A stretch of 27,337 bases of DNA from a virus, in the IMG/VR virus record IMGVR_UViG_3300014835_000071, positions 1 to 27,337 of that record. One strand, 5' to 3'. The position numbers and the translations under genes were made by a program. Below are positions 1 to 26,200 of this stretch, piece after piece (within the stretch, counting starts at the first letter, position 1; each line of letters begins with the position of its first letter). Below the pieces are notes generated by a model that ran no database searches, was not told where the DNA came from, and was given only the letters and a program-made list of their open reading frames with translations.

Positions 1-1326
1 CTTTCTAATAAAACTATCTTTATTTGTTAATAATTTCAATAAAAATTCTTGATGATCCTTTAACGCAGATAATTCATTTATGCTATTCCAATTTATTTCC
101 TGAAGTGCCGAGTTACTGAGCTGGGTGATCTGTTCCTGATAGGGATCAGTTTCTACATTTTTAATTTTTAATTGCTCAATTAACGTTTGTAAATTATGTT
201 GATGCTGTAACGCTTCAGCTATTGTTCTATAATAGGTCACTGGTTGCTGAATTAACTCACCAATCCCATTCATTTCAGCAACTATCGCAGTGAGGTCAAT
301 ATTAACTTTTTCAAAATATATATAGTTATCAGTTAGATTATTTTCAACTATTGCGGTAATGGCAGCATGATCGTGATCTAGCAATGTTTGACTACATACA
401 TGGCATATTTTATTAGTCATTGAATCTAATTCAATGACGTTTCGATTGACCATTTTTTCTGCTTGTGCTACTGTATCGGAGCATACCGCATGTTCTTTTT
501 TTAATCGTCTGATGTTATTAACTTGGTCATTATAAGCAACGGTGGTACCATGCGTTTCTAATTCAGTCTCGATATCAAGACTTGTTAATTCGGCAATCTC
601 CTTATTGATTTTATTAATGGTGAACGTATGTTGTGTATTCCATGACTGTTGTCGTGTGATTAATGTATCGATACTTTGCTGAATTTTTTCATTTGACTTA
701 GTTGCCGCCTCGATATCAGCATTTTCTTGACAGATTAAATCTTTGGATTGCTTTATTTGTTCTTTTAATACTTCGGCTTTTTCACTCAGTACAGTTATGC
801 CCAATAATTGTTCAATAATAACCCGTTGGTCATTTGCCTTCATGGCAAGAAATGGTTCCGTGTAGGTATTCAATGAAACAATATGCTTAAACATATCATG
901 ACTCATCCCTAGTAAACTGTTCACATCATGCTGGGTTTCTCGCATGTCGCCTTGTGAATCATTGCTTTCAGGTGCTTCATTTAGTTCGTCATTGACATAG
1001 AATTTCATGACATTTGGTCTTCTGCCACGCTCTATTCTATAATTAACATTGTTTTTTGAAAAAGTCAATGATACTAACATATTCTTGTTATTGACACAGT
1101 TTATCAGATTATCTTTTTTAATACTGTTTAATGCTACGCCAAATAACGCATAACTAAGCGCATTGCACAATGTTGTTTTTCCAACTCCGTTCCGGTTGCC
1201 ATCGCCACCTAAGTCTAAATTTTCACCAATTACTAATGTTAAATTTTCTTTATTGAGCTGAACTGCTTGTGTTTGGTTGCCTACACTTAGGAAATTTTTA
1301 ATCGTTAATTCTTTAAATTCAATCAT
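1..1326 (-). CDS. gp46: Recombination endonuclease ATPase subunit, T4 gp46 / SbcC / Rad50-like (3' end runs off the window)
   Basis: Not in the ORF track because it has no stop in the window. Manual translation from ATG at 1326 gives MIEFKELTIKNFLSVGNQTQ...GENLDLGGDGNRNGVGKTTLCNALSYALFG (KNF motif plus Walker A), then a coiled coil and an in-frame zinc-hook CHVC at 394-405. The ATG overlaps the gp47 stop (ATGA). Confidence 0.93.
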   Translation of the reverse strand, partial: MIEFKELTIKNFLSVGNQTQAVQLNKENLTLVIGENLDLGGDGNRNGVGKTTLCNALSYALFGVALNSIKKDNLINCVNNKNMLVSLTFSKNNVNYRIERGRRPNVMKFYVNDELNEAPESNDSQGDMRETQHDVNSLLGMSHDMFKHIVSLNTYTEPFLAMKANDQRVIIEQLLGITVLSEKAEVLKEQIKQSKDLICQENADIEAATKSNEKIQQSIDTLITRQQSWNTQHTFTINKINKEIAELTSLDIETELETHGTTVAYNDQVNNIRRLKKEHAVCSDTVAQAEKMVNRNVIELDSMTNKICHVCSQTLLDHDHAAITAIVENNLTDNYIYFEKVNIDLTAIVAEMNGIGELIQQPVTYYRTIAEALQHQHNLQTLIEQLKIKNVETDPYQEQITQLSNSALQEINWNSINELSALKDHQEFLLKLLTNKDSFIRK

Positions 1327-2339
1327 AATCCGTTGTAAATTCCCAGTAAAATATTGTTATTGAATGATTCAGAATTGATACTTATTATTTGATTTGACAC
1401 AATAGTATCGATGCTTTCGAAAATTGGAGCATCGATGGTGCTATTAATGTCAAACTCTTTTTTCTCTATTATCAAGGTTAATTCACGCAAGTTATATTCT
1501 GACATAAATTTTTCTTTGATAAATTTGGCTTCTTCGAAACTAATTTCAACATCCATTGATACTTTAATATGCTGATTTGGTTTAAGCATATTATCAGCAG
1601 TGTCTAAGAATTGACTAAGTTTTAATGTTCTAAAAGTAGGCTGATTGGGCCACGCATAGTATTGTGGTTGACCATCCCATTCTAGTACCATCATGCCTCG
1701 ATCATCATCCCATGTATCTGCGAAATTATGCGGGAATGCGTTTCCAATATAATGCATATTATTACGAGATTGACGTTTATGAAAATGACCACTGAAGCCC
1801 ATTTCATATTTTTGAAAATTGTCAAGTTGTAATTCAGCATGGTCTGGCATTTGTACCATTGCATTCATGAAAAAATGCGGTAACTCAAAGTGACCAAATA
1901 TATACTTACCACCTTTTTTACCAATTTGCTTCCATTCATCACCAACTAACCACGGACACATCGTCACCCCTTTGATGGTTATTGGGTGAGTGATTACTGT
2001 GATGCCTGGGATATATTTGCCAAATTCAGCAGAATGAATATCTCGTTTATCCTTGAAGTATAAATCATGATTGCCTGGGAAGAAGAAAAATTGTTCAAAC
2101 GCACTGCCTAATTTTTCCAGAATACGTAATGAAGAATCCATTGTAACTACATTCAATGTGTTACGATTGTGATGGAAATCCCCTAGAAATAAACCAGTTT
2201 CACATCCTTCATCTTGTGCTTTTTGTATATACCAATCGATAAAATCTTCACAATCTTTGTTATGAACACTACTGTTAGATTTCAGACCAAGGTGTAAATC
2301 AGTAAATACTGCCGCTTTTTTAAATAAGTTCATAGTCAT
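1323..2339 (-). CDS. gp47: Recombination endonuclease nuclease subunit, T4 gp47 / SbcD / Mre11-like metallophosphoesterase
   Basis: Phosphoesterase motifs DLHLG, GDFHH, GNHD, GHF and SGHFH; directly upstream of the gp46-like gene. The start may be the second ATG at 2333. Confidence 0.93.
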   Translation of the reverse strand: MTMNLFKKAAVFTDLHLGLKSNSSVHNKDCEDFIDWYIQKAQDEGCETGLFLGDFHHNRNTLNVVTMDSSLRILEKLGSAFEQFFFFPGNHDLYFKDKRDIHSAEFGKYIPGITVITHPITIKGVTMCPWLVGDEWKQIGKKGGKYIFGHFELPHFFMNAMVQMPDHAELQLDNFQKYEMGFSGHFHKRQSRNNMHYIGNAFPHNFADTWDDDRGMMVLEWDGQPQYYAWPNQPTFRTLKLSQFLDTADNMLKPNQHIKVSMDVEISFEEAKFIKEKFMSEYNLRELTLIIEKKEFDINSTIDAPIFESIDTIVSNQIISINSESFNNNILLGIYNGL

Positions 2340-2402: not shown

Positions 2403-4121
2403 CTATTTCATCAGTTTAAAGACATATTGACCGCAATCCCATACTTTGTCAAACCCATGATTGGTCATATTTTGATTAGCGGTTAATAGTGGGTTAAAAT
2501 TTGCTAATTTATCTTTCATAAGATGTTTCTGCCATTGATAACGTGAACCTGCATATTTTCCTGCCTTTGTAATGTAAAAAAATCCGGGTGGTGATATTGA
2601 AGCTAGTTCAAATCCTAATTTATTATAAACATTTCCAATACTATATCTACGATTGCAATAAGAAATTAATTCATCATTGGTATTCATGTGGTATTTTATA
2701 AAATGCTTTATTAATTTACTGGCACCACCTACTGCCTGTAGTCCAGCGGTAGAACATAATCTCAATAGCTCAAATGTATTTGAACGCTTAGTAAATCTAG
2801 GCTTACCAAAGGTAGCTACCATAACTAATTGCTCATTGATATCAAATAGCCCAATATTAATAGAACTTGAGACATCGCCCTGCAGATGATTGGCATTGAT
2901 AAAATCTTTTTTATTTATATACTGGATATCTTTGACAACAGTCTGTCTGGCATAAATTCGATCACCCAATCCAAGTTTACTATTGATGAGGTTTGTTACT
3001 TGATCCCACTTGGTGTTTAATTCAAAATCCCAAAATTGCAATAATTCAATACCGAGTGCTATACAACTATCTGTTTTTAGCAAATGATATTGTTCAAATC
3101 TATTGAATTTCTCGGAGTGATAGTAACATCCATTGACCTCTATAGCAAGCTTTTTTTCAGGAAAATATAAATCTAATTCTTTTGGTGGAATTATACTTCT
3201 GGTATTATTAACTAATGTAAGTTGTGAAGTACGATAGTATTCATTCAGTCGGCGTTCCAACTCGCTAGCTGGATGATGAACAACTTCAATGCCTAATGAC
3301 TGAAATATTTTACACAAATTACTGGCACTAACGCCAATATCATTTGCTATTTCACCAATAGTTTTACCAGAGTTGTGTTCATCAGTTAACCATTTAACAT
3401 CATTAATTTTGCTGGCAGTATCTGTTGTGTAATAATTATTTCGAAAAGTATCAATACTTTTCGCCCTGATTATTTTATTATTCAGTGGGTTAGCACATCC
3501 ATACCGTGCTATATTTGTATTCTTAACTTTATTTTTAATAATGGCATTGTGCATAGGATTATCAACGCCGTATCTTATGTTATTTGTATTTTTAACTTTA
3601 TTCTTGATAATGTCATTAAGCATAGGATTAATGGACCCATATCTTATGAGATTTGTTTGTGCTATTTTTTGTTTAGTATCAGTTAGTAACATTGTATGTG
3701 TGACATTATATTTTGCTAAATTGGAAAGCCTAACTTGGTCTTTGTATTGTTGGGTTTTGGTATAATGCTCAGCGCCAAATTTACGTAGACTAGTGGCTTT
3801 GACTTTATCCTGCCATTCAGTTGTTTGTGAATGCCATGCTTTGCCAAATGCCAACAGGTTATTCTGTTTGGTAATTTCTATTGAAAATTTAGCAGAACAT
3901 GATTTGCTACAGTATTTCCTATATGCTCGTAAATCAGGATGCCATGCTAACGGCATCCCGCACTTACAATTTGGTATATCAATTGAATTTTGCTTAATAT
4001 GATATATTATCTGTCTGGCATTTTTACTATTTAATTTAGCTGATATTAAATTTATAATGGCATGTTGCGGAATTTTTAGTAGCTTGGAAAATGAAATACG
4101 TTCATCATTTTCCAATGCCAT
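2403..4121 (-). CDS. Free-standing putative homing endonuclease: Zn finger + 23-aa repeats + HTH + Vsr/Hef-like PD-(D/E)xK nuclease + C-terminal GNAT/Mom-like domain
   Basis: CKC...YCSKSC at 3897-3968; six 23-aa repeats at 3459-3872; HTH-like KTIGEIANDIGVSASNLCKIF; SELE...ELDLYFPEKKLAIEVNGCYYHS nuclease motif; C-terminal FINANHLQG...FELLRLCS...GGASKL...SYCNRRYSIGNVYNKLGF...WDCG. The ORF is open to 4184, but ATG 4121 avoids overlap with the sigma gene, so the start is uncertain. Confidence 0.75.
   Translation of the reverse strand: MALENDERISFSKLLKIPQHAIINLISAKLNSKNARQIIYHIKQNSIDIPNCKCGMPLAWHPDLRAYRKYCSKSCSAKFSIEITKQNNLLAFGKAWHSQTTEWQDKVKATSLRKFGAEHYTKTQQYKDQVRLSNLAKYNVTHTMLLTDTKQKIAQTNLIRYGSINPMLNDIIKNKVKNTNNIRYGVDNPMHNAIIKNKVKNTNIARYGCANPLNNKIIRAKSIDTFRNNYYTTDTASKINDVKWLTDEHNSGKTIGEIANDIGVSASNLCKIFQSLGIEVVHHPASELERRLNEYYRTSQLTLVNNTRSIIPPKELDLYFPEKKLAIEVNGCYYHSEKFNRFEQYHLLKTDSCIALGIELLQFWDFELNTKWDQVTNLINSKLGLGDRIYARQTVVKDIQYINKKDFINANHLQGDVSSSINIGLFDINEQLVMVATFGKPRFTKRSNTFELLRLCSTAGLQAVGGASKLIKHFIKYHMNTNDELISYCNRRYSIGNVYNKLGFELASISPPGFFYITKAGKYAGSRYQWQKHLMKDKLANFNPLLTANQNMTNHGFDKVWDCGQYVFKLMK
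3459..3872 (-). repeat. Six tandem 23-aa (69-bp) repeats in the endonuclease, consensus (V/I)KxTNxxRYGxxNPMxNxxIKxK
   Basis: Units TKQNNLLAFGKAWHSQTTEWQDK / VKATSLRKFGAEHYTKTQQYKDQ / VRLSNLAKYNVTHTMLLTDTKQK / IAQTNLIRYGSINPMLNDIIKNK / VKNTNNIRYGVDNPMHNAIIKNK / VKNTNIARYGCANPLNNKIIRAK. Confidence 0.9.
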
Positions 4122-4134
4122 TAACTCAGTTAAT
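4120..4134. promoter_or_regulatory. Palindrome over the putative endonuclease start codon and ribosome-binding region
   Basis: ATTAACT-C-AGTTAAT, a perfect 7-1-7 inverted repeat overlapping the minus-strand ATG at 4121-4119. Confidence 0.4.
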
Positions 4135-4143
4135 AAATCGTTG

Positions 4144-4974
4144 TCATTCGTGTTCCAATCTATGTCTTCTTTCATCTGCCTCATATCCCCCAGAATTTGT
4201 CCTAGTAAAAGATGGATTTAATCCATTCATTTCCAATATATCATCACGTATGTTTTGATTCCTCTTCTCTATATTTATCACTCTGACGAAGGCATTGGTA
4301 CATGCTGCCGTGAAGTAAGCAAATGGGTTATCTGATTTAACTTCATCGAATTGTAGTCCAATTTGTGCTAGTTGTAAAATAGCTTGGCCTTTCATTTCAT
4401 CGTTGTAGGTATATCCACGAACATTTCCTCTAGTTGCGTAGCGTTCACATAGTTTTATCATCATTCTTGCTAGTGTGTCAGTAATTATACCAGCATTTTT
4501 ATCAAAATGTCCAGTAATTAAGTCACCTCGCCAATGGCTTTTGCCGACGCATATTAAAGTATCATTATCGGAATACTTCCAATGTTGAAATGGTTTAAAA
4601 TTCACCTTATCGTGTAAATCTGCTTCTGTTTTTGGATTTTTTTTACGAGTTGAATTAAGTGGTATATGATCATAAGTCATTACTCTGAATATTAAATCTA
4701 TCGTGGGAATTGAAGTATGTTCAAATTCGCATTCACTTATTTTTATCTTTTCACCAGTTGCCTTTCGTGCTGAATAGTCAAACTCGGACATTCGCTTTGC
4801 TTTATTTTTCTGTGCCAACTCGATTATTTGTGTATCGATATCTGACAACTCGGTAACTATTATGTCATATTGATGAAATGATGGTTCTGTAAAACTACAA
4901 TGTGAAGTTTTTGAACGGTGTATTTCTAGCAGCATATCTTTGTTATTAAGGTAATTTTTAGGTGTTCTAATCAT
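4144..4974 (-). CDS. gp55: Late-transcription RNA polymerase sigma factor, T4 gp55-like, with a large internal insertion
   Basis: N-terminal NYLNNKDML and C-terminal RGYTYNDEMKGQAILQL...FDEVKSDNPFAYFT...NAFVRVINIEK match the gp55 pattern. The gp55-gp47-gp46 order is T4-like. An AAGGA RBS precedes the ATG. Confidence 0.85.
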   Translation of the reverse strand: MIRTPKNYLNNKDMLLEIHRSKTSHCSFTEPSFHQYDIIVTELSDIDTQIIELAQKNKAKRMSEFDYSARKATGEKIKISECEFEHTSIPTIDLIFRVMTYDHIPLNSTRKKNPKTEADLHDKVNFKPFQHWKYSDNDTLICVGKSHWRGDLITGHFDKNAGIITDTLARMMIKLCERYATRGNVRGYTYNDEMKGQAILQLAQIGLQFDEVKSDNPFAYFTAACTNAFVRVINIEKRNQNIRDDILEMNGLNPSFTRTNSGGYEADERRHRLEHE

Positions 4975-5012
4975 TGATTTAAGTCCTTTTAAATGATTTA
5001 TAAATTATATAT

Positions 5013-5041
5013 ATTATACTACATTTAGATATTTTTGTCAA
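5013..5041 (-). promoter_or_regulatory. Perfect-consensus sigma70-type promoter for the leftward (sigma/endonuclease/gp47/gp46) block
   Basis: Minus strand TTGACA (5041-5036), 17-nt spacer, TATAAT (5018-5013), about 40 nt upstream of the sigma gene ATG. Confidence 0.9.
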
Positions 5042-5073
5042 CTAAATACTTCATACTATTAGGAATTATTATG
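5042..5073 (+). promoter_or_regulatory. Putative phage late promoter (CTAAATA) plus RBS for the structural block
   Basis: CTAAATA at 5042-5048 resembles the T4 late -10 element TATAAATA. It is followed by ACTATTAGGAATTATTATG; a near-identical arrangement precedes the gp6-like gene. Confidence 0.7.
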
Positions 5074-5892
5074 GCAATTGATACTGGGACATCTATACAA
5101 ACAGCAGTTGGGGCAGTTACTGCTCCAAGTTCTGCGACAAATGCGCTCCAATCAGCGATAGCTTCGGCATCAACCAGTGGGGTAATAAGCGCAGTGCGAT
5201 CTGCTAATATACCCGTTGGTGGTGAAGTAATTCCAGCGTCTGCCGGTGTTGCCGCTAAAGCTTCTTTCGGTAATATACTAGGTAATATACTAGGTGATTG
5301 GCGTGTTAGTTTAGGGCTAGTACTTGGCGATGCCGCTTTTCTTGCAAGTCCAATATTATTACCAATAACTCTGGCAGGTGGTTTAGTTTTTCCATATACG
5401 CCGCAAATTAATATAGGTGCGTCTGCCACTTATGCCACACAGTCCCCAGTGCATTCAAATTCATCATTTAGATCATTTAAAAATAGTGAACCATCGCAAA
5501 TAGAAATCTCAGCACCAATGTACGTCGAGGATGCTGAGCAGGCATTATATTGGTTAGCAGCAGTTCATTATTTGCGTTCATTGACTAAGATGTATACTGG
5601 AACTGGTACCAACACGGGTAATCCTCCACCAATTGTCCGACTGAATGGATACGGACCGTATGTATTTAACCATGTGCCGGTCGTTGTTACTAAGTTTTCG
5701 GTACAATTAAATGCCGATTGTGATTATATCAGTGCTACTGCGCTGGGGGTAGATTTGGGGCATGTACCGACTAAAAGCACACTTGCTATAACTTTACAGC
5801 CAATGTATAGCAAGGATAATGTTCGGAAGTTTAGTCTACAAGCATTTGCGACTGGTGCATATATTTTAGATCCATTTGCGGGGTATATGTAA
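5071..5892 (+). CDS. Baseplate / tail-tube initiator-like structural protein (T4 gp48/gp54-like fold suspected)
   Basis: First gene of the structural block; motifs DWRV, GGLVFPYTPQI, YLRSLTKMY, GNPPPIVRLNGYG, VPVVVTKFSV. ATG 5071 with an AGGA RBS is preferred over the track's TTG at 5035. Confidence 0.6.
   Translation: MAIDTGTSIQTAVGAVTAPSSATNALQSAIASASTSGVISAVRSANIPVGGEVIPASAGVAAKASFGNILGNILGDWRVSLGLVLGDAAFLASPILLPITLAGGLVFPYTPQINIGASATYATQSPVHSNSSFRSFKNSEPSQIEISAPMYVEDAEQALYWLAAVHYLRSLTKMYTGTGTNTGNPPPIVRLNGYGPYVFNHVPVVVTKFSVQLNADCDYISATALGVDLGHVPTKSTLAITLQPMYSKDNVRKFSLQAFATGAYILDPFAGYM
5269..5295 (+). repeat. Perfect 12-bp tandem duplication, in frame (GNIL-GNIL-G)
   Basis: GGTAATATACTA x2 followed by GGT. 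Confidence 0.9.
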
Positions 5893-13700: not shown

Positions 13701-14211
13701 TAATATGTTAGCGCCGAATTTAAATTTAATAAAATCAATATCGGATGAAATAATTTATCACCCAGTTAATTATAAGATTTTATTTGGCATTACTGCGACT
13801 CCTGAATTACAAGCAATGTTCAAAATAACTAAAACGCCTGGCCAAGTGGTATCAGATAATGATATAAAAGCTAAAGTGATTAGTGCAATTAATCAATTTT
13901 TTGCGTTGGAAAATTGGGAATTTGGTGACACGTTTTATTTTTCAGAATTAGCCACCTACGTGATGACACAAGTAGCCCCGACTGTATCGACATTTGTAAT
14001 TGTACCAAGGCAAGCCGGTCTTAATTTCGGCAGTTTGTTTGAAATAACTTCATTAAGTAATCAATTGTTCATCAATGGCGCGACTGTCAATGATATTGAT
14101 ATAATTTCTGGCGTTACTGGGAGTAATATAAAGGCGATTAGTGGGACAACAGTTGATTCCACCACATTAACACAGCAATCAGTGACAAGTTCACCATATG
14201 GGAGTCTTTAA
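10756..14211 (+). CDS. gp6: Baseplate wedge subunit, T4 gp6-like (baseplate J family), enlarged to 1151 aa
   Basis: DFENLR...DFNDYIESSE...LIDLIA...NARENFLELAERRDSVLRLARLVSYNAKR; FSDGTFGNLP; IKANAPATYYTQNRMITGEDY; C-terminal FGDTFYFSEL. Confidence 0.9.
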   Translation: MSATDRQNRLLLTEDWTKIYQSFRTADFQSYDFENLRRVMIDYIRQNYPEDFNDYIESSEYLALIDLIAFMGQSVAFRVDLNARENFLELAERRDSVLRLARLVSYNAKRNTPAQGLLKFSTVQTTQTIIDSNGRNLAGQHISWNDPSNPNWHDQFIKVVNAAFPSSQQFGNPIDKNVISGIPSEQYRFSGVNTDVPIYSFTKSVAGRNMNFEITSTTFSNQNYIYEEAPKLGNKIACVYRDDGRGYGSTDSGFYFNFTQGILSTGTFAIDQPSRSESINIDSVSINDSDVWLYQVDKNGYESVLWTQVPSFEGNNVIYNSLVKSLRNIYGVTTRVNDSVSLTFSDGTFGNLPLGTFRAYYRISNGLVYTINPRDIRSIAIAIPYLSNQGQRETLSITMNLSNAVVNSDSAESSVSIKANAPATYYTQNRMITGEDYNISPMGTNQQVVKAKAVNRSASGISRYFDLVDPTGKYSSTNLFADDGVIYTEEYTTTARFSYGTRPEIAGMIHNVVIPIIEQSGVKNFFYSKFTNYITASLQIAWNSVIVDSTSVSGYVSSPAGTIYSVGSYTITDLKYLTPGALLKFSAPTGYYFNSNKSNVLEAGTAVSIGAVTEIWAAVVSVADDGRAAGLGKLSSGAGPIVLSIVVPTGAVITQLIPAWRTVISNAVVTTMIDLIFANKPFGLRYDAITQTWQLIFETNLDAISLFTLGKQGITTNKQQDSSWFLMFTTDNEYYTITCRESRFIFESAAQLRFYFDSATRAYDSRTNSVVTDMINILSVNTIPDGTQSFTRDLKWDIVSEFMGLDGYVDSKKIVIIFADTDANGVVDDPELFLNIVAPTKNQLSKYIILQKYTITVGQEDYRYVDNSSNVVIIKNSQSEVGSLLQYTTGQYFYFIDIDVVKQLSLPTGKMTPTLDYKVYVGRDKLKFQYTHRADYSSRIDPGVSNIIDIYILSRSYDLVYRQWLAGASIAKPLPPSSSELYNMLAPNLNLIKSISDEIIYHPVNYKILFGITATPELQAMFKITKTPGQVVSDNDIKAKVISAINQFFALENWEFGDTFYFSELATYVMTQVAPTVSTFVIVPRQAGLNFGSLFEITSLSNQLFINGATVNDIDIISGVTGSNIKAISGTTVDSTTLTQQSVTSSPYGSL

Positions 14212-17200
14212 TGGCTGATAATATAAATCCAAATGCTAGTAAAAATACGGCTTCAACTTTCCTACCTAGAATTTTTAGAACGGACGCAAACAAGAAATTT
14301 TTACAAGCCACTCTTGACCAATTAGTACGACCCGGTACAGTTAAAAAAATTAATGGGTATATTGGTCGCAAAAATTCAAAAGCAACTACTGCTACTGACA
14401 TTTTTATCAATGCTGCCGATGCTACTAGGCAAAATTATCAATTAGAACCAGGGTTGGTGATACAAGATTCATTAAACAATACTACCTTCTTTAAAGATTA
14501 TATTGATTTTATCAATCAAATATCAGTTTTTGGTGGTAATACGGCAAATCATGCTCGGCTGAATGAGCAGGAATTTTATAGTTGGGACCCTCATATTTCA
14601 TGGGATAAATTTATAAATTTTCAAAATTATTATTGGATGCCATTCGGTCCAGATACTATTCGAATTTATGGTCATGAAAAAAATGTAATAAGCACGTACA
14701 CGGTTGTGGTCGAAGCTGAAGGTAATAGCAATGAATATGTCTTTACGCCAAATGGTCTTTCTAGAAATCCAACACTGACATTGTTTCGTGGGCAAACCTA
14801 TACTTTTGAGATCAATGCTCCTGGTAATCCATTTAGTATAAAGACTGCACGGACTGCTGGTGATTATGACCGATATTCACCAGCAGGTTTAACCGGTATC
14901 GCAATTGAGTATGGTACTATTACTTTTACAATACCACATGATGCTCCATCAGTTCTATATTATCAAAGTGAGAATGATCGTGATTTAGGCGGGGTAATTC
15001 AGGTACTGGCAATCAGTGATAATTCATTCATTGATGTAGATGCGGAGATTGTTGGTAAAAAAATATACCAGTTATCAGATGGTACAAAACTTAGTAATGG
15101 TATGAAGGTGTCATTCGGCGGTAAAGTTACTCCGTTAAATTATGCCACTGGAGAATTTTATATAGAAGGTGTTGGCACTGCTATTAAATTAGTACCAACT
15201 GCCATTTTAGAATTAATTAGTTCATATACAGCTTCTCAATCAGTATTGTTTGATTCGCAACCATTTGATAAACAACCATTTAGTGATGCCACTGCCTATG
15301 CTGGTACATCAGATTATGTAGTTATAAATAGATCCAGTAACGATCATAATCCCTGGTCTAGGTATAATCGTTGGTTTCATAAAGATACTATTGAAATTAG
15401 TGCCAAATTTAACGGAAATGCAGTATCCTTAGATCAATCGGCAAGGGCGACTCGTGCCATCATAGAATTTGATGCTAATTTAAAATTATTTAACTTCGGT
15501 ACGGACGCTATTGATGATGTTGATTTAGTTGATAATTTTACTACTGATATATTGTCAGTTATTGAAGGTTCATTGGGGTATAATATAGATGGCATACCAG
15601 TTAGTGATGGGTATAAAATTTTAATAACGGCTGATCCAGATAGATTTGTAAAAAATAAAATATATCAAGTTGAGATGATAGATGTTAAACATGAATCAGT
15701 GAATGGGGTGAGTACATCTACTCAAATTCATTTACGTTTGCTTCATGAGCCAATTGCGTCACAGGTGGTATTGGTTAAGCAAGGTAAGCAAAATCAAGGT
15801 GAGATGTATTGGTATGACGGTGAAAGTTGGCATAAAGGTCAGCAAAAAACTGGATTAAATCAAGCACCATTGTTCGATGTGGTAGATTCGAATGGTATCA
15901 GTTATGGAAATGTAGATACCTATATTGGGTCAAGTTTTACCGGTACTAAATTATTTTCATATAAAATTGGGACTGGTAATACTGATTCAGTATTGGGCTT
16001 TCCACTGTCATACAAAAATATTAATAATATTGGTGATATAGTTTTTAATTTTAATTTATTAACTGACAAATTTGTATATAATAAATTAGCTGAAATTATT
16101 GAACAGACCACTGACGTTGGTTATTTGGTTAATAATATGCCATCTGGTATTACCTTTGTAAATGGCTGGCAAACTTGTGCGGCTAAGTATGTACAAGGGG
16201 CAATTAGAATTTATAATGGCACTGAGCAAACTAACCATTTTGATATAGATATATTTGATAGTATGCCAATGTCAATTGATATTGATGATATTCGATTATA
16301 TATAAATGGTAGCAGAGTGGCGGTTGACCATTATTCGATAATCACTGGTGTAGTTTATTATCAAGTAGTATTGTTGGTGCCAATAACAAGTGGTGATGTA
16401 TTAACCATTAAAGTATTTGCGCCTGAGCCAATTAATTCCCGTGGTTATTATGAAATACCAGTTAATTTGCAATATAATCCATTGAATGGGACATTAGCTG
16501 ATTTTACATTAGGTGAAGTGATAGATCATGTTGATAGCATTATTGATAATATTTACATCAGTGATGCTCAGTTGATTGATAATTTACCGTATGATAAAAC
16601 TGCTAATGATGTCAATCAAGTTACTTTCGTTGGAGTTTTTCCAGGCGTTAGTAATTTGCGAGATTTGGGTAATATCACTCAATATGGAACTCGATTTGTT
16701 CAACATAGTTCTCCTGCTAATTTGTCATTGTACCATATAACCTCTAAGACAAGTAACATTATTAGATCAATAGAAAAAAGTTGTGATGATTATGGCAAAT
16801 TTAAGCATAATTTTATGGTAGTTGCTGAGTCACTCGGTATCGATACTAATCCAGTGGCACACGTTGATTTGATATTGCAAGCCATTAATAAGAGTATTCC
16901 AAATACCTTTCCATATTATTTTAGTGACATGGTTGCTTATGGTGCTCATAACACTACTGTATTGACAGTGGTTGATTATCGAATACAAGCTTATCCATTG
17001 CTTAATATATTTAGCATGGATGAATTATCGGCACGTTCAGTACTCATTTACGTAAATGATATTCAGATATTGTACGATCGTGATTATACATTTGATACGC
17101 AGGGATTTGTCGTAATAACATGTGGGTTGCTTACTGGTGATACGATAATTATTAATGAATACGACAATACTGATGGATGTTTTATTCCAGAAACGCCTAC

Positions 17201-20200
17201 TAAGTTGGGAATTTGGCAAAAGTTCGAACCATTAATTTATCTTGATGATAGTTTGGTAACACCTAGACTATTGATTCAAGGGCATGATGGAAGTTTAATT
17301 CTGGCATATGAAGATTATCGAGATGATCTCATTCTAGAATTAGAGAAACGAATTTATAATAATATCAAGGTAAAATACGACACTAGCATCTTTGATGTAC
17401 ATGCAGTTATTCCAAGTTATAATAGGGCTACCGCATATAGTTTATCGGAGTATAATAATGTATTGGCACCAAGATTTTACAAATGGGCTAAGCTAGTTGG
17501 TAAAGATTTATCTAGATCATTGGGTACTGAAAATTACCGAGGATATGTTACCCCAGATGGGCGAGAAACTCCTGGATTTTGGCGTGGTATATATCGATGG
17601 ATGTTGGATACGGATCGTCCACATATTTGCCCGTGGGAAATGCTAGGTTTTAGTGAAATGCCAGTTTGGTGGACTAGTGTTTATGGTCCAGCGCCATACA
17701 CTACTGATAATTTAATTTTATGGACTGATATCAGTAATGGTACGATAAAAGATCCAATGATGCCAGTTACAAGGTTTCTTAAATTTGCTAAACCATTTTT
17801 ATTAAACCATTTGCCAGTTGATGAACATGGCAAATTAGTAAGTCCAGTGGTTTCGGATATGGCAAATGGTATACCGACTGATATCAATAATGGTGATTTT
17901 ATTTTTGGTGATGTAAGTCCATTAGAATCAGCTTGGCGAAGAAGTTCATATTACCCATTTAGTGTATTGATTACGTCCTTGTTGTTGACACCTGCTGGTA
18001 CATTTGGTGTATTATTAGATAGATCACGTATTGTTCGAAATATAGCCGGTCAATTAATTTACAAGGATACTGGCTTACGAGTAACCTCAAATACTATAAA
18101 ATTACCTAGTATTCAATCTAGTTCAACCCGTGTTCAGACTGCAGGTATAATCAACTATGTGGCTAATTATATTTTAAGTGATAATTTAAAATCTTATAAT
18201 GATTACCAATACGATTTGTCAAATATAACAGTTAAATTAAGTCATCGACTAGGGGCATTTACGAGTCGTGACAAGTTTAATTTAATTCTTGATTCAAAAA
18301 CACCGTTATCAGCCGGTGGTGTGTTTGTCCCACCTGAAAATTATGATATTATATTGAATACGAGTAGTTCAATTAAGAAAATAACATATAGTGGGGTTAT
18401 TATTACTAAATTGCAGGATGGGTTTAGTGTCAGTGGGTATAGTATATCACACCCATATTTTAGTTATTACCCGTGGCAAAAAGCCGGGGTTCTTATTAAT
18501 ATAGGTGGCATTTCTGAAAGTTATATTCAGTGGACTGCAAATCAAGTGTATGCGGCTGGTAAAATTGTTAAATATTCGTCTGAATATTATCGAGTGTTAT
18601 CATTGCATACTACTACTGGTGTATTTAACGCAGCCAATTATCAATTACTTGCATCATTGCCGGTTATTGGTGGGAGATCTGCAATGATACGGCAATTATG
18701 GGATCGAACCGCTCCGATAGTTGTTCCGTATAATACTAAATTTAATTATGTACAAGATGTTGTGGATTTTCTGTTGGGATATGGCGAATATTTAACCGAC
18801 CAGGGATTTGTCTTTGATGAATTTAATTCTAACATGCAGCAAGTTACCAATTGGGAAACCAGTGCGAAAGAATTTTTATTTTGGTCTACACAAAATTGGA
18901 CATATGGTCAAGATAAGTGGAGTGATTGGTTACCTGGGCAATTAATAGTAGCTGGTTCAATCGTCCGATATGATGGTACGTATTACACTGCCGTTAGAAC
19001 GAAGCAGACTGGTTCTATATTTGTCACTAATGATTTCAATAAATTGGGTGCGCTAAGCAATGTTGGTAGTTCAGTAATTTCATTGAGTCCAGCTGCTAAT
19101 AAATTAACTTTTAATACGGCATTGTCTGTAGTGACTGATATTACCGATGACTTTAATGGTTATGAAATCTTCAAAGTCGATGGGCAGCCAATTGCTTATA
19201 ATTTAATAAATTCATATCGGGAAGATAATGCGGTTAGTTATGCCTCTCCTGAAAATGGAATTTTTGGTGCTAGTTTTTATTTAGTTCAAACAGAGCAAAT
19301 TGTTATTATTGATAACCGTACATTGTTTAATGATACCATTTATAACCCAGAAAGTGGGTATAAGCAAGATAGAATCAAAGTGGCAGGTTATATAAGTACC
19401 AATTGGAATGGCTCGTTTGATGTGCCGGGATTCGTATTTGACCAAGCAATTATTAAAAATTGGGAAATGTGGACAAATTACGCAATTGGTGATGTGGTAA
19501 AATATAAGGAATTTTACTATGCTGCTATTGGATTAATTTTAGGCACGGAACATTTTAATCCAATTGATTGGACTAAAATTTCTAAAAAGCCAACTGCACA
19601 GTTATTACCAAATTGGAATTACAAAGCAAGTCAATTTGAAGACTTTTATAGTTTAGATAGTGATAACATTGATACCAATCAACAAAAAATGGCACAGCAT
19701 TTAATTGGTTACCAAAAGCGCCAATATCTTGAAAACATCATTCAAGATGATGTGTCCGAATTCAAATTCTATCAAGGGATGATAATTGAAAAAGGTACGC
19801 AAAATGTACTTAATAAATTGTTTGATGTACTTAGCGTTGATGGCGAAGATAGTTTAACATTTCACGAAGAATGGGCAGTTCGTGTTGGTCAATACGGTGC
19901 CAATGCTGCTTTTGAAAATATTGAATTTATTTTAGACGAAAGTTTATTTAATTCAAATCCGCAAGGTTTTGAATTACTGTCCACTGGTAGTAATTCACAT
20001 GATTTTATAATCAGACAAGTACAATCTGACATTTACGTAACCCCGATTGGTTACGATAATAACCCGTGGCCTATTTTAAAAAATGATACTACTTATCTGA
20101 GATCGGCGGGTTACGTCCGGCTTGATGAAGTGACATTAAATTTGAAATCACTTGCTGATATCCTAGCTGTTGACATAACAAAGCTTGTGACTGGTGATTA

Positions 20201-23200
20201 CATATGGTGTTCATTTGACATTGCTGGTTGGAATGTTTATCGATATACTGATTCCAATATAGTAGTTAATGACGCAATGGCAGTGGGTGATTACATACAT
20301 GTGACAACTTCACGTTTGGTTACACTGCCGATCGGTTCGTATATTAGTATACGACATGTAGCCGGATTTGCTGGTTTTTATAAAATTGAAGATGTTATCT
20401 TAAATGTAATAGTTATCTATGCAGCAGATGCCTCGGTAACTTCGCCATTGGTTGATCAATCATCTATTATGATACATTCATTAGTAAGTCAACGAGTTGC
20501 ATCAATGGATGACATAGATGGAATGTTGCCACCGATTTTGAAAACTGACGAATTAGTATGGTCAGATAATGGCATTGATGGCAATTGGGCTTCTTGGATA
20601 CATACGCCAGTGTATAGCAAGACACAAATTTCAAATCTACATCCAATTAATTTAGAACTATATGGCAAAGCAATTCAAATAAGTAATCGTGGAAATATAT
20701 TAGCAATATCAACTGGTGCTGGTGAAGTTGAAATTTATGATAGGGCCAATCTGATGAATCACTGGGTTCATCGACAGTTGATAAGTGTGCCAATTATAGG
20801 GCATAACCAATATGACTATGATTTAAATAATACACAAGATATAGCAACTGTAATGGCGATATCAGCTGATAATCGATGGTTAGTTACTGGTTCACCAAGC
20901 AGTGGGTATGCAACTATTAATAATAATGGCTATTTGAATGTCGTCGGTGCTAATTATACTGCTTCTTCAATGGCCAATCATGGTGCTGTTTCATTGTACG
21001 AAAAAGACAGTAACAATACATACACATTAGTTAATACAATTTTAAGCAAAGTGCCACGTACTGATGAATATTTTGGTGAAAGTTTAGTATTCAGTGGTGA
21101 CGCTTTGTACATAAGTGCAGGTAGTGCCACTGGTAGCGTGTATAAATTAATCTACTCCACTATCATTCATGTTACTACTAATTACAACCCAGTTGGTAGT
21201 GTGGGAAATGTATTACATCTATCAAGTGTTGCTGGTATTGCGATTGGTATGACAGTTACTGGTAATGGTTTAATTACTGATAAGATTGTGATTAAGGTAA
21301 CTGATTCTATCACGGGACAATTAACAAACTCATCAATTACTGGTAATATATTGACAGTTGGTACATTGACAACCGGTGCTGTCGTAGTTGGGCAGACGAT
21401 AAGTGGTATTGACATTTTGGACGATACTATCATAACCAATCACATTAGTGGCACTGGTGCTGGATCAAAGTGGTTAGTTAGTAGAAATAATTACGAAGTA
21501 CATGATATTGCAATATCATGTACTTATCAGGTACAAACCGTAACTTTAAATGAAGCACCTGAATCTCAGCCTTCAGGTATGATACAATTCAGTACTAATG
21601 AGTGGAAATACGATGATAGTTCCAATCAAAAAAATAACGTGGGACATTCTATAAAATTGGCAAGTAGTATAGTCAATGATGTATTGGCTATTGCTTCGGT
21701 TGATAATGACAATATAGGCAAAGTTAAGGTATATATTACTGACAATTTGCAACAAACTATTGTTGGCAATTCAAAATTTGGCCAAGGTATTTCTATTTCC
21801 GAATTTGGTGATTATATTGTCATATCTGATATCTCGGTAACTGGTAGTATGGTAGAACAAGGCGGGGTTGATATTTATAAACGCATAATAACTAATAGCG
21901 TAATATCATATGACAAATATCAATCATTGACAGTTAAGTATCCAGAAATAGATGGCTATTTTGGTAGTAAGGTATTATTCGGTGATGATTACAAAACTAT
22001 ATACATTTTAAGTTCATTGGCTGATATAACATTGCCGTGGTATCCGACTGATGGTACTACATTTGATAATGGCACCACTGGATTTAGTTTACTTAAAAAC
22101 CTCGATAGCGGTCGCATTGATGTGTATAATAGGTATAATTTAAAATGGGTATATAGCGAAAGTTTGGATACTGCTAATTATGCGGCGGATGGGTATGGTA
22201 ATAGTATGGCAGTTGGGGCAACTAGTTTAGTTGTTGGTGCGCCATACGCACAGGACAGTGCTGTCAAGGCTGGTAATGTATATGTATATAATAAACGAAC
22301 TGATGCTTATAGCTGGGAAATTAACCATTACGGAATTGCAAAACCGGATGTTAGTAAAATTAAACAAGCATTTCTGTACAATAAAGTTACTAGCAAATTA
22401 ATAACTCATTTGGATGTACTTGACCCATTGCATGGCGTAATCCCAAGTATAGCAAATGACGAAATTAAATATAAAGTATTCTATGATCCAGCTGTGTATT
22501 CAATTGGTGAAAGTGCCACTCATACAATTGATGATGGATCTGCGTGGAAGGGACACTATGTTGGGTATCTATGGTGGGATTTGCGAACAGCTAAATTTGT
22601 TAATGGCAATGATGATGACATTGTGTACCGAAATAGTGCATGGCATACATTGGCAACTGGTGCAACTATCGACATATATGAATGGGTTGAATCTACGTTA
22701 TTACCGGATGATTGGGACTTGGATGCTGATACTGACTCTGGGTTAGCTAATGGGGTAAGTGGTACTACTTTGTATGGTAATGCTGCTTATAGTAGTGCTA
22801 CTCATTATGATATTATCAGTAATACTTCAAAGAATACGTATTATTATTGGGTCAAAAATACTAAAATAATTCCATTAAGTTTAACTAGAAAAATATCAGC
22901 ACAGGATGTCGCCAGTCTAATTGGTAATCCTCGTGGCGCCGGGTATCAATATATGGCTTTAACTGGTAGCAATTCATTTAGTTTAGTTAATGTTTCATCA
23001 TTATTGGCACATCGTGATGTAGTGTTGTCAGTTGAATATTGGTTAGTTGATAATACTACACAGAACATTCACACTCAGTGGCAACTATTGAGTACAGATT
23101 CGGCAACGGTAATACCTGCTAAAATAGAGGATAAATTAATAGATAGTTTATGCGGTAAGGATTCGTATGATAGAGTGATACCAGATGACTCATTGCCCGT

Positions 23201-26200
23201 GAAATTGAAGTATGGTATTGAATCACGTCCACGCCAGGGTATGTTTATTAATCGATTTGAGGCATTGAAACAATATGTTGAACAAGCAAACTTAGTATTG
23301 CATGATAATCTAATTTCAGATACTAGGGATTTGAGTAAATTAGAAAGTTATGATATTGAACCACATTTAATTCGTGGGTTATATGACAGCGTAGTTGATA
23401 CTGATCTGGAATTGCGATTTGCTGAAATTAGTTCATTTACCCGTCCGGTGATATCTCCGATTATACAAGATGGTCGCATAGTTGGTATCGAGATAATAAC
23501 CGCTGGTCGTGGGTATATCAATGCACCCTTCATAGAGGTCGCTGGCACTGGTACTGGAGCTATAATACGAGCGGTTATTAATATAGCCGGTCAATTAATT
23601 GGTGCGGTGATTATAAATTCAGGTGTTGGGTATACTGAATATACCTCGTTACTAATTAGGGATTATACCGTATTGGTGCATAATGATTCGTCTACTGGCG
23701 GTTGGACTATTTATTCATATGATCCAATTACTTATGTGTGGTCATTGTTATTGGGTAGGACGTATGATACTAGTAAATATTGGCAATACATTGATTGGTA
23801 TGCAGCTGGTTATAATCAATTTAGTGCAATTATACATTCAGTTTCGACATATGCCGAACTTGATACAATCGTGGTCAACATTGGTGAATTGGTTAAAGTT
23901 AGTACGACCAACGCTGGTACATGGGTACTATTAAAGAAATATTCAATGGTAAGTTCAATTGATTGGACGCACTCATATGCGATAGTTGGTAGCGAACGTG
24001 GAACAATTCAATTAAAATCTTCATTGTATGAATTTGCCCATACTGGTATTGGGTATGATAATTTATTATATGATGGTGGAATTTTTGATAATAGCGCATC
24101 GGCTGAATTAAGAATAATACTAACTACATTGCGGGATGAAATTTTTATTGATAATTTAAAATCTACAAATTTAGATTTATTTTTTACCTGCATACGATAC
24201 ATTTTAAGTGAACAATTATATGTGGATTGGATTTTTAAAACTAGTTTTATTAAAGCAAACCATAATGTTGGCACTTTACATAAGCCTGTTACTTACCGAA
24301 ATGACAACTTAGCAAATTTTGAAGACTATGTGGCGGAAGTAAAACCATATCGAACTACTATTAGGGAATATGTTAGTTCATATAACGCTATAGAAATGAC
24401 TGAAACATCCATTACTGATTTTGATTTACCACCATTTTATGAAAAAAATTCATTAACATTGGTTGATACTACGGTAATGAATGGTGAAATTATGGTAGGT
24501 GACACTATCATTAATGCCTATCCGTGGAAACATTGGCTGGATAATGTTGGATTTATAGTTACGTCATTGGCGATAGTTGATGGTGGTTCTGGATATGTAA
24601 CAGCGCCGATTGTCAATATAGTACAAAATTCTGGCAGTGGGGCAACTGCCCGCGCTTTTATTACAAATGGCATAGTTAACCGAGTGATACTATTAACTCC
24701 TGGCAGTGGATATCTATCGGCGCCGAATGTATATATCACGGGTGGGCTATCAACTACTGGCATTGCTGCTCGTGTTATAGCTACAATTGGGGATAGTGCT
24801 ATACGAACATCTATTATTAAATTGAAATTTGATAGAATATCACGGGCATACTCAATAATTCAGTTGCAAGAAATTGAGACATTATCTGGTACTGGATCAC
24901 GATTGCAATTTTCATTAATATGGGGACCAGATGTGCAAATTGGTACTAGTTCAGTAACTATCAATGGGATTACTGCTTTGCGAGATAATTATAAACTTCG
25001 TGTAGTAAAATCATCAACTAATGGATATGTATCTGGTACTATTACATTTAATGTGGCACCTATTGCTGGTTCAACTATATCAGTTACTTACCTGAAAGAT
25101 TGGTCATTATTAAATTCTGCTGATAGAATTCACTATTATTATAATCCAGGAATTGGTGAATTAGGTAGAGATTTGTCGCAATTAATGACCGGAGTTGATT
25201 ATGGTGGGGTCATAGTAAGTGGATTGGGGTTTGAATTAACCCAAGGCTGGGGTAGTACTCCATTTTATTCAGATAAATGGGATACATCTGATCCGACATT
25301 TGATGACTACATAGTATCAGTTGCTGCTGATACTCGCACATTCACCTTGCCGTATATTCCGTTACCTGATGTCATGGTAAATGTATATCACAATGGGATC
25401 AGGCTTGATGATCCACATTTTGGTACAGTGGGTCAATTAAATAATTTAGCAGTTATGTCTACTTGGGTTGGGAATGGTGAAACATCTACTATAAATATTC
25501 CAACTATTGTTCAGGTATCAATGGGTGACCAATTTATTTTACGTAAAGCTACTAGTGATGGAGCAGTGCCTCCAGCAGAGGCGGATTATGACACTGCGTT
25601 AAGTGGTGGTGATTTAACTTATAATACTGCAACTGGAATTGCGGCGGAAGACATGATTATTGATGGTGATGGCTTTGTGACACCGATGACTAGTCCAGCG
25701 CCTGAAGAAGTAGTGCCTGGTCAAATCGTAGATGCGTTGGCAATTAAGGTATATGATAGACCATTTGGTGGATCTGCGGCTATTAATGTCGATAATTACG
25801 TGGCGAATGGTGTTCAGCATATATTTGCGATATCAACCAGGTTGGATAATCCAGGTGTCGTCATAGTAAAAACTACAACTGGGTTGACAAATCTCATATT
25901 AACACTTGACGTGGATTATAGCATTGATCATAGACATAATCTAGTATCTTTTTTCAATGTGCCGCAACATGGTGTATTAGTTACTATTTTCGGAATTGGT
26001 GTCAATGGTACTAGTATTTTGGATGCAGATTATGTAATTGCTGATGGGCAAGCTACTGATTTCATCACGAAAGCTCCGTGGTTGGCAACTGTTAGTACCT
26101 TGGTGTATGTCAACGGGGAAGTGGCACTGGCGAAAATGGTAAATATTAGTGACAATTTAATTATAAGATTTGAAAATCCACCAGTTATTGGTGATATGAT

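Follow-up and report, generated by a model that had tools for sequence, protein, structure and literature searches.

The window analyzed here, 27,337 nucleotides in length, spans positions 1 to 27,337 of the IMG/VR record IMGVR_UViG_3300014835_000071. The source record is a 108.5-kb fragment, 29% complete according to CheckV, of a T4-like freshwater jumbo phage whose full genome is about 370 kb, as judged by CheckV and by a complete relative of 372 kb. Freshwater and lake metagenomes contain near-identical DNA. A single tRNA gene (Ser, GCT) is located at 106683-106772 of the 108-kb record, and tRNA-Gly was not found in this 29% fragment of the genome.

The record carries one copy of a gene which lies between the genes for gp55 and gp47 and whose product is a Hef-family homing endonuclease, residues 12-591 matching phrog_3339 'homing endonuclease' (E=9e-123). 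The gene for gp46 (phrog_77) is, together with that for gp47, also among the downstream neighbors. An earlier, sequence-only reading had described one ORF with a Cys cluster, repeats, a helix-turn-helix (HTH), a nuclease and a C-terminal domain of ~185 aa between gp55 and gp47, and all of these are present. The span of 2403-4121 given for the ORF can be retained in part: the frame is single and open, but 4121 is the third ATG (Met22), and the residue numbers 409-593 given for the C-terminal domain count from the first ATG at 4184. In near-identical and related copies the gene call begins at the equivalent of 4175 or 4184, with a gp55 overlap of about 32-41 nt. The gene, its parts and its neighbors are as follows.

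1323..2339 (-), gp47 (SbcD-like), downstream neighbor (phrog_100, E=3e-62), which adjoins gp55 in empty alleles
2403..4184 (-), hef-type homing endonuclease gene, 593 aa, a single open frame with alternative ATGs at 4175 and 4121
2406..2960 (-), Mom-family GNAT domain (aa 409-593), from fold search and kept residues
2445..2594 (-), insertion in the GNAT fold (aa 531-580), the putative equivalent of the essential HTH-like insertion of Mom
2970..3269 (-), Vsr-like / EDxHD nuclease domain (aa 306-405), from conserved residues and a profile match
3285..3407 (-), HTH (aa 260-300), three helices in the structure model
3432..3872 (-), six 23-aa basic helical repeats (DUF7487), a putative DNA-binding arm
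3894..3968 (-), putative four-Cys zinc ribbon (aa 73-97; C73/C75/C92/C96)
4144..4974 (-), gp55 late sigma factor, upstream neighbor (phrog_12791, E=3e-75)

Architecture of the Protein

Among 48 homologs, C73, C75 and C92 of the putative zinc ribbon are invariant, as are E336, D338, E349, H356 and K370 of the nuclease domain. The six repeats have a mean pair identity of 6.3/23, compared with 1.6 +/- 0.3 in 5000 shuffles (maximum 3.1), and match Pfam DUF7487 with E=2e-19; for the HTH, Pfam gave HTH_AraC at E=0.009 only, under the cut-off. The family profile matches I-Bth0305I (PDB 3r3p, E=5e-9), and Hef has been placed in the EDxHD/Vsr-like family (Taylor et al., 2011; PMC3239194). The nuclease profile found 17,196 representatives at E<=1e-10, not all of which are Hef. 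All parts form ordered units in an AlphaFold model of the full-length protein, which has a mean pLDDT of 92.6. Taken together, the repeat arm and the EDxHD nuclease would point to one long site rather than many short ones. In some relatives (P0134-P0139 and P0190) there are two nuclease-domain matches per chain of 640-1060 aa, and in two of these chains, P0134 and P0137, the Mom-like domains are degenerate.

The C-terminal domain had been taken as GNAT/Mom-like in the sequence-only reading, and this was confirmed at the level of the fold. Its model (pLDDT 95.6) has a GNAT fold, the best Foldseek match is Mu Mom (8bv8, E=1e-6, TM 0.63) and most of the active-site residues are kept. The VIA comparison with Mom gave Z 14.0 and rmsd 3.7 over 163 aligned residues. 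Ordinary GNATs are equal in Z with about 130 residues aligned, the alignment to Mom being longer because the insertion is common to both proteins. Mom was found by fold search: a single-sequence search of the PDB with the C-terminal domain gave a weak GNAT match only (E=0.05), Mom was absent from the results of a profile search with the domain, and a Pfam search of the protein from 2403-4184 gave no match to Mom (PF25680), which does match 67 of the 105 family members. The hhalign alignment to Mom was weak (probability 13.5%, E=0.002) and was used for residue mapping only.

Five residues of Mom are kept (H433=H58, R475=R111, S489=S124, R513=R151 and Y520=Y159), the first of them placed by motif and structure range, outside the hhalign stretch, and two are changed, with N511 for D149 and L434 for Y59. 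In Mu Mom R111, S124 and R151 are essential, H58 and Y159 supporting, and D149 and Y59 important (PMC13219725). Since D149 and Y59 are not kept, the domain is filed here as a Mom-family fold and not as a proven Mom enzyme. In the family Y59 is never kept, whereas D149 is kept in the majority (D in 57, N in 40 and other residues in eight of 105 relatives). When 150 proteins were picked by the nuclease profile alone, 146 had the Mom domain, nearly whole in 134; among the latter the kept residues are H in 129, R in 128, S in 106, D in 106 (with N at the D149 position in 17), R in 116 and Y in 130. In 16 of the 150 an intact nuclease motif is combined with a degenerate Mom-like domain, and the degenerate versions retain the fold and the terminal WDCG strand. 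A search for shorter, stand-alone Mom domains gave 11 matches, mostly on short contigs. In Hef proteins the Mom domain is both ancestral and conserved, and its dN/dS of 0.09-0.11 (against two orthologs) indicates that it is under purifying selection.

With Mu Mom (8bv8, PF25680) the domain shares the GNAT fold with its insertion and, as predicted for the element, late expression. It differs in having only 16-18% identity to Mom, in its fusion to a nuclease and in a GGAS loop, in place of RNSES, that is nearer to the acyl-CoA loop of ordinary GNATs. A com-like regulator was not seen. The donor of Mom is Gly-tRNA, from which glycine is transferred to the adenine N6 in dsDNA (PMC13219725), and the experiment with acetyl-CoA and Fe proposed in the sequence-only reading is therefore outdated. 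Of the iron triad proposed earlier for Mom (Y59, D149 and Y159; bioRxiv 10.1101/861617), moreover, one ligand is kept (Y159 as Y520) and two are absent.

The pairing of nuclease and Mom-family domain, which had been thought undescribed, is already published and is the ordinary architecture of Hef. The C-terminal domain was found at 890 places in 333 phage records, under the annotations 'Hef-like homing endonuclease' or 'nuclease/acetyltransferase'. The Hef gene of coliphage G8, located in the U5-type nrdA-nrdB position and representing U5 Hef here, aligns end to end with 31% identity over 548 columns, C-terminal domain included. The Hef of U5, as judged from G8, and the Hef-like proteins of G8, Campylobacter Los1, LIMEstone (F-LimX) and AR9 (g146) have the same architecture, C-terminal domain included, and the same nuclease and Mom residues, and the genes are free-standing between conserved genes; U5 hef cleaves the neighboring nrdB (PMC2988022). 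For the Mom-REase fusions of group 2 jumbo phages, which combine a Mom-family GNAT with a nuclease of the REase fold, Iyer et al. (2021; PMC7824862) have proposed the very idea of a cut-and-protect gene, in which Mom protects and the REase attacks. A text search on the pairing returned only that study and the Mom paper, with no experiment on a fused protein, and Silva (2026) does not mention the fusions.

Mobility and the Putative Promoter in gp55

Although the gene type is common and published, its free-standing homing behavior, as it appears from comparison of related phages, and its putative element-linked promoter are new. Three features within gp55 bear on them.

4144..4365 (-), 3' part of gp55 predicted to travel with the element (co-conversion tract), with its boundary at gp55 nt 590-612 in relatives
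4244..4305 (-), 62-nt recoded block, gp55 codons 224-243 (nt 670-731), the putative immune allele of the homing site
4272..4279 (-), putative late promoter motif GATAAATA in gp55 codons 232-235, 95 nt before the first ATG

The mobility of the gene and the existence of empty alleles, both expected by the sequence-only reading, are supported by the gp55-gp47 junctions of 79 relatives, which were picked by gp47 alone. In 65 of them gp55 abuts gp47; the others have a small ORF (seven), a GIY-YIG-like gene with the motif read by eye (four) or the element (three). With the GIY-YIG-like genes, the site becomes a hot spot at which homing endonucleases of unrelated kinds are found. These genes occur in L016, L018 and L020 (about 4260-5000) and in L065 (about 3950-5000) and are without the embedded promoter. 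A small ORF of 60-95 aa precedes gp47 in L008, L013, L032, L033, L034, L037, L065, L023 and L074, following either gp55 or the inserted nuclease; it is absent from the window. Two further local differences were seen: in L102 (5840-6968) gp46 is called as two pieces, of 86 aa and the remainder, and in L298 (5355-6734) gp47 is separated from the next long gene by small ORFs.

Homologs with more than about 42% identity in the C-terminal domain are nearly all at gp55-gp47, in phages with 43 to 79% identity in gp47. On a tree built from sequence outside the transferred tract the carriers need six changes, and a single carrier clade was rejected (p-AU 0.002); judged from this tree, the carriers are polyphyletic. 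Copy number is also variable, from none in one 96%-complete relative to three in another and up to 10-11 intact copies per genome.

Traces of transfer come from relatives at 65% identity and not from the phage itself. L083 and L088 diverge by 9-20 differences per 100 nt as far as gp55 nt 588. Beyond this point, to the end of gp55 and over most of the gene, the value falls to 0-2 per 100, except for one patch in the Mom domain with 3-7 per 100; directly after the stop codon of the gene it is 21 per 100. L086 and L124 share a similar tract, beginning at gp55 nt 612. Since the tract is one-sided, the cut would lie in the 3' third of gp55, and free-standing homing endonucleases are known to cut usually hundreds of bases from their own gene (PMC2988022). 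Read mapping of near-identical lake populations found pieces of the gene in all of them, and the empty allele was not seen there. The data fit a free-standing homing endonuclease rather than a restriction-modification system, as far as comparison of genomes can tell.

The strongest association with the element lies in a silent position. Ile233 of gp55 is encoded by ATA in all 13 carriers and in none of the 58 non-carriers, an association far above that of every other of the 149 conserved gp55 codons, with the limitation that the counts are not independent, although the carriers are scattered among the non-carriers on the tree. The ATA codon gives rise to GATAAATA at 4272-4279. The gp47 columns gave no comparable signal. 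Codon bias as the cause was excluded by the other Ile codons. In the record of this phage the most enriched heptamers before gene starts are CTAAATA (12 vs. 1.0 expected) and ATAAATA (10 vs. 1.7), and the late promoter motif of the phage is [A/G][C/A]TAAATA, mostly located 26-31 nt ahead of the start codon; the genes at 5071 and 10756 are among those preceded by it, with one copy at 5042-5048 (+). The motif is found nearby in 25 of the 26 carrier site copies and in none of the 66 non-carrier gp55 ends (background 0.07). Distant carriers form CTAAATA by means of a Leu codon, and carriers without the embedded motif show GCTAAATA in the intergenic stretch instead, 26 nt ahead of the ATG; in the examined stretch of one carrier, L129, no such motif was found. 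The ATA codon had first been read as a change serving immunity alone or as the loss of a palindrome, and this idea was dropped in view of the genome-wide promoter scan and of the CTA and intergenic variants.

Silent codon changes in gp55 thus create a predicted late promoter that is linked to the element, from which late transcription of the gene would start, presumably with gp55 itself as the factor reading it. Late promoters before homing endonuclease genes are already known, and our literature search found no paper on a promoter made by silent changes within a sigma-factor gene. A promoter inside the gene of the sigma factor that reads it would mean that a selfish gene builds its control element in the coding sequence of its host.

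The recoded block is much longer than the promoter. Its 62 nt are identical in two carrier haplotypes whose flanking sequences, on both sides, differ at about one position in 10, and they show 15-17 differences between carriers and close non-carriers, compared with 3-6 among three of those non-carriers. In a wider set, codons 224-243 have only a modest excess of synonymous difference between carriers and non-carriers (0.61 vs. 0.43 and 0.47), which is partly due to the promoter itself. The block is probably the immune allele of the target. In size it resembles the about 60-bp footprint of I-Bth0305I, which has a similar nuclease and an N-terminal repeat/HTH arm and, unlike the gp55-gp47 element, is intron-encoded, 266 aa long and without a Mom domain (PMC3239194). 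From the other Hef-like genes the element differs in forming its own site-faithful clade, in its probable target gp55, in the six regular 23-aa repeats and in the late promoter embedded in gp55.

Self-Protection and the Role of the Mom Domain

We regard the following account as probable in its entirety: the gene is a free-standing Hef homing element with a late promoter in gp55, a target in codons 224-243, a recoded immune site and an accessory Mom domain. Transcription would start late, from the promoter in the last third of gp55. The zinc ribbon, the repeat arm and the HTH would recognize a long site, most likely codons 224-243 in the gp55 of element-free phages, and in a mixed infection the EDxHD nuclease would cut this site in the element-free gp55. 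Recombinational repair would then copy the 3' end of gp55 and the gene into the cut genome, as the co-conversion tracts suggest, while the carrier would probably be immune by virtue of its recoded sequence. Because the recoded site holds the promoter, autorepression by binding of the protein to this site, as in I-TevI, is conceivable, if speculative. The Mom domain may modify adenine in phage DNA late in infection and protect against off-target self-cutting, other nucleases or host restriction. That it is a working transferase with such an accessory protective role, performing adenine acylation or aminoacylation, is the most likely of its possible functions and slightly more probable than not. 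The likelihoods attached here to an active Mom domain, to immunity based on it and to restriction-modification overlap.

A less probable, still realistic view is that the Mom-like domain, in this copy or in the whole family, is non-catalytic and serves the nuclease as a DNA- or tRNA-binding, folding or dimerizing module. The variation at D149 and the consistent loss of Y59 would agree with this, as would the fold and the terminal WDCG strand that degenerate versions keep and the position of the copy at 2403-4184 below the Pfam Mom model; both Mom (PMC13219725) and I-Bth0305I (PMC3239194) act as dimers. The equivalents of H58, R111, S124, R151 and Y159 are, however, kept in 79-97% of the relatives picked by the nuclease profile, beyond what a scaffold would need.

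More doubtful is the proposal that homing itself is of the cut-and-protect type, the same site being recognized in both alleles, with Mom modifying an adenine of this site in the carrier and only the unmodified incoming allele being cut. It was predicted in print (PMC7824862) and is consistent with the joint retention of both active sites in nearly all copies, including ten out of ten in Campylobacter Los1, with the purifying selection on the Mom domain and with a predicted late expression like that of mom. Against it, the likely site is recoded in carriers, so that self-protection by sequence is possible without Mom. The intron-borne AR9 copy keeps the Mom residues, though the intron should interrupt its site. 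Vsr-like homing endonucleases without Mom exist (I-Bth0305I and AR9 g147), and the 16 relatives with degenerate Mom-like domains keep the nuclease motif. All four points weaken the need for Mom. A diffusible modifier would, in addition, presumably shield the target genome too in a mixed infection. U5 Hef reportedly cuts its own DNA in vitro; if this is right, immunity by sequence is not general, and a role for modification would be favored.

It is accordingly improbable, on the genomes compared, that the Mom domain is the immunity mechanism of the element. Equally unlikely is the wider notion of Hef as a homing endonuclease with a tRNA- or acyl-CoA-dependent adenine transferase that marks its own site or the progeny genome and so decides between self and non-self. 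If true, Hef would be both a sequence-targeted DNA aminoacylase and the first homing endonuclease to owe its immunity to modification.

Least of all do we expect a one-gene restriction-modification or superinfection exclusion system, in which Mom would mark the whole genome and the nuclease would destroy unmarked host or rival DNA at many sites: both domains are intact and Iyer et al. (2021) read the jumbo-phage Mom-REase fusions as restriction systems, but the long repeat arm with the EDxHD nuclease suggests one long site, complete relatives live without the gene, and the gene has the habits of a homing endonuclease: it is patchily present, keeps to one intergenic position that GIY-YIG genes also occupy, is accompanied by co-conversion and can reach 10-11 intact copies in a genome. 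The suggestion in the sequence-only reading of a restriction-modification-like element rather than a plain homing endonuclease is thus not sustained, since distribution, site fidelity, co-conversion and the recoded target fit homing.

The role of the conserved Mom domain in Hef proteins is a question for the whole family. At the locus described here a 62-nt target in gp55 is predicted, the alleles of carriers and non-carriers are matched, and a putative late promoter is linked to the element; the matched alleles make the choice between immunity by sequence and by modification directly testable. In Bacillus phage AR9 (L098, 832-3576) the introns of a single RNA polymerase gene hold two Vsr-like endonucleases, of which only one has the Mom domain, and these form a natural pair for testing it; the DNA of AR9 contains uracil.

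Two observations concern other genes of the window. In near-identical lake strains the Ala/Ser-rich start of the gene at 5035-5892 is shorter by 12 nt, in frame, at 5269 (+). The region 14211-27337 (+) is occupied by one ORF of 4586 aa, which runs off the window, is for that reason absent from the default ORF list and ends at position 27971 of the whole record; an alternative genetic code for this region was rejected because it is a single ORF of that length.
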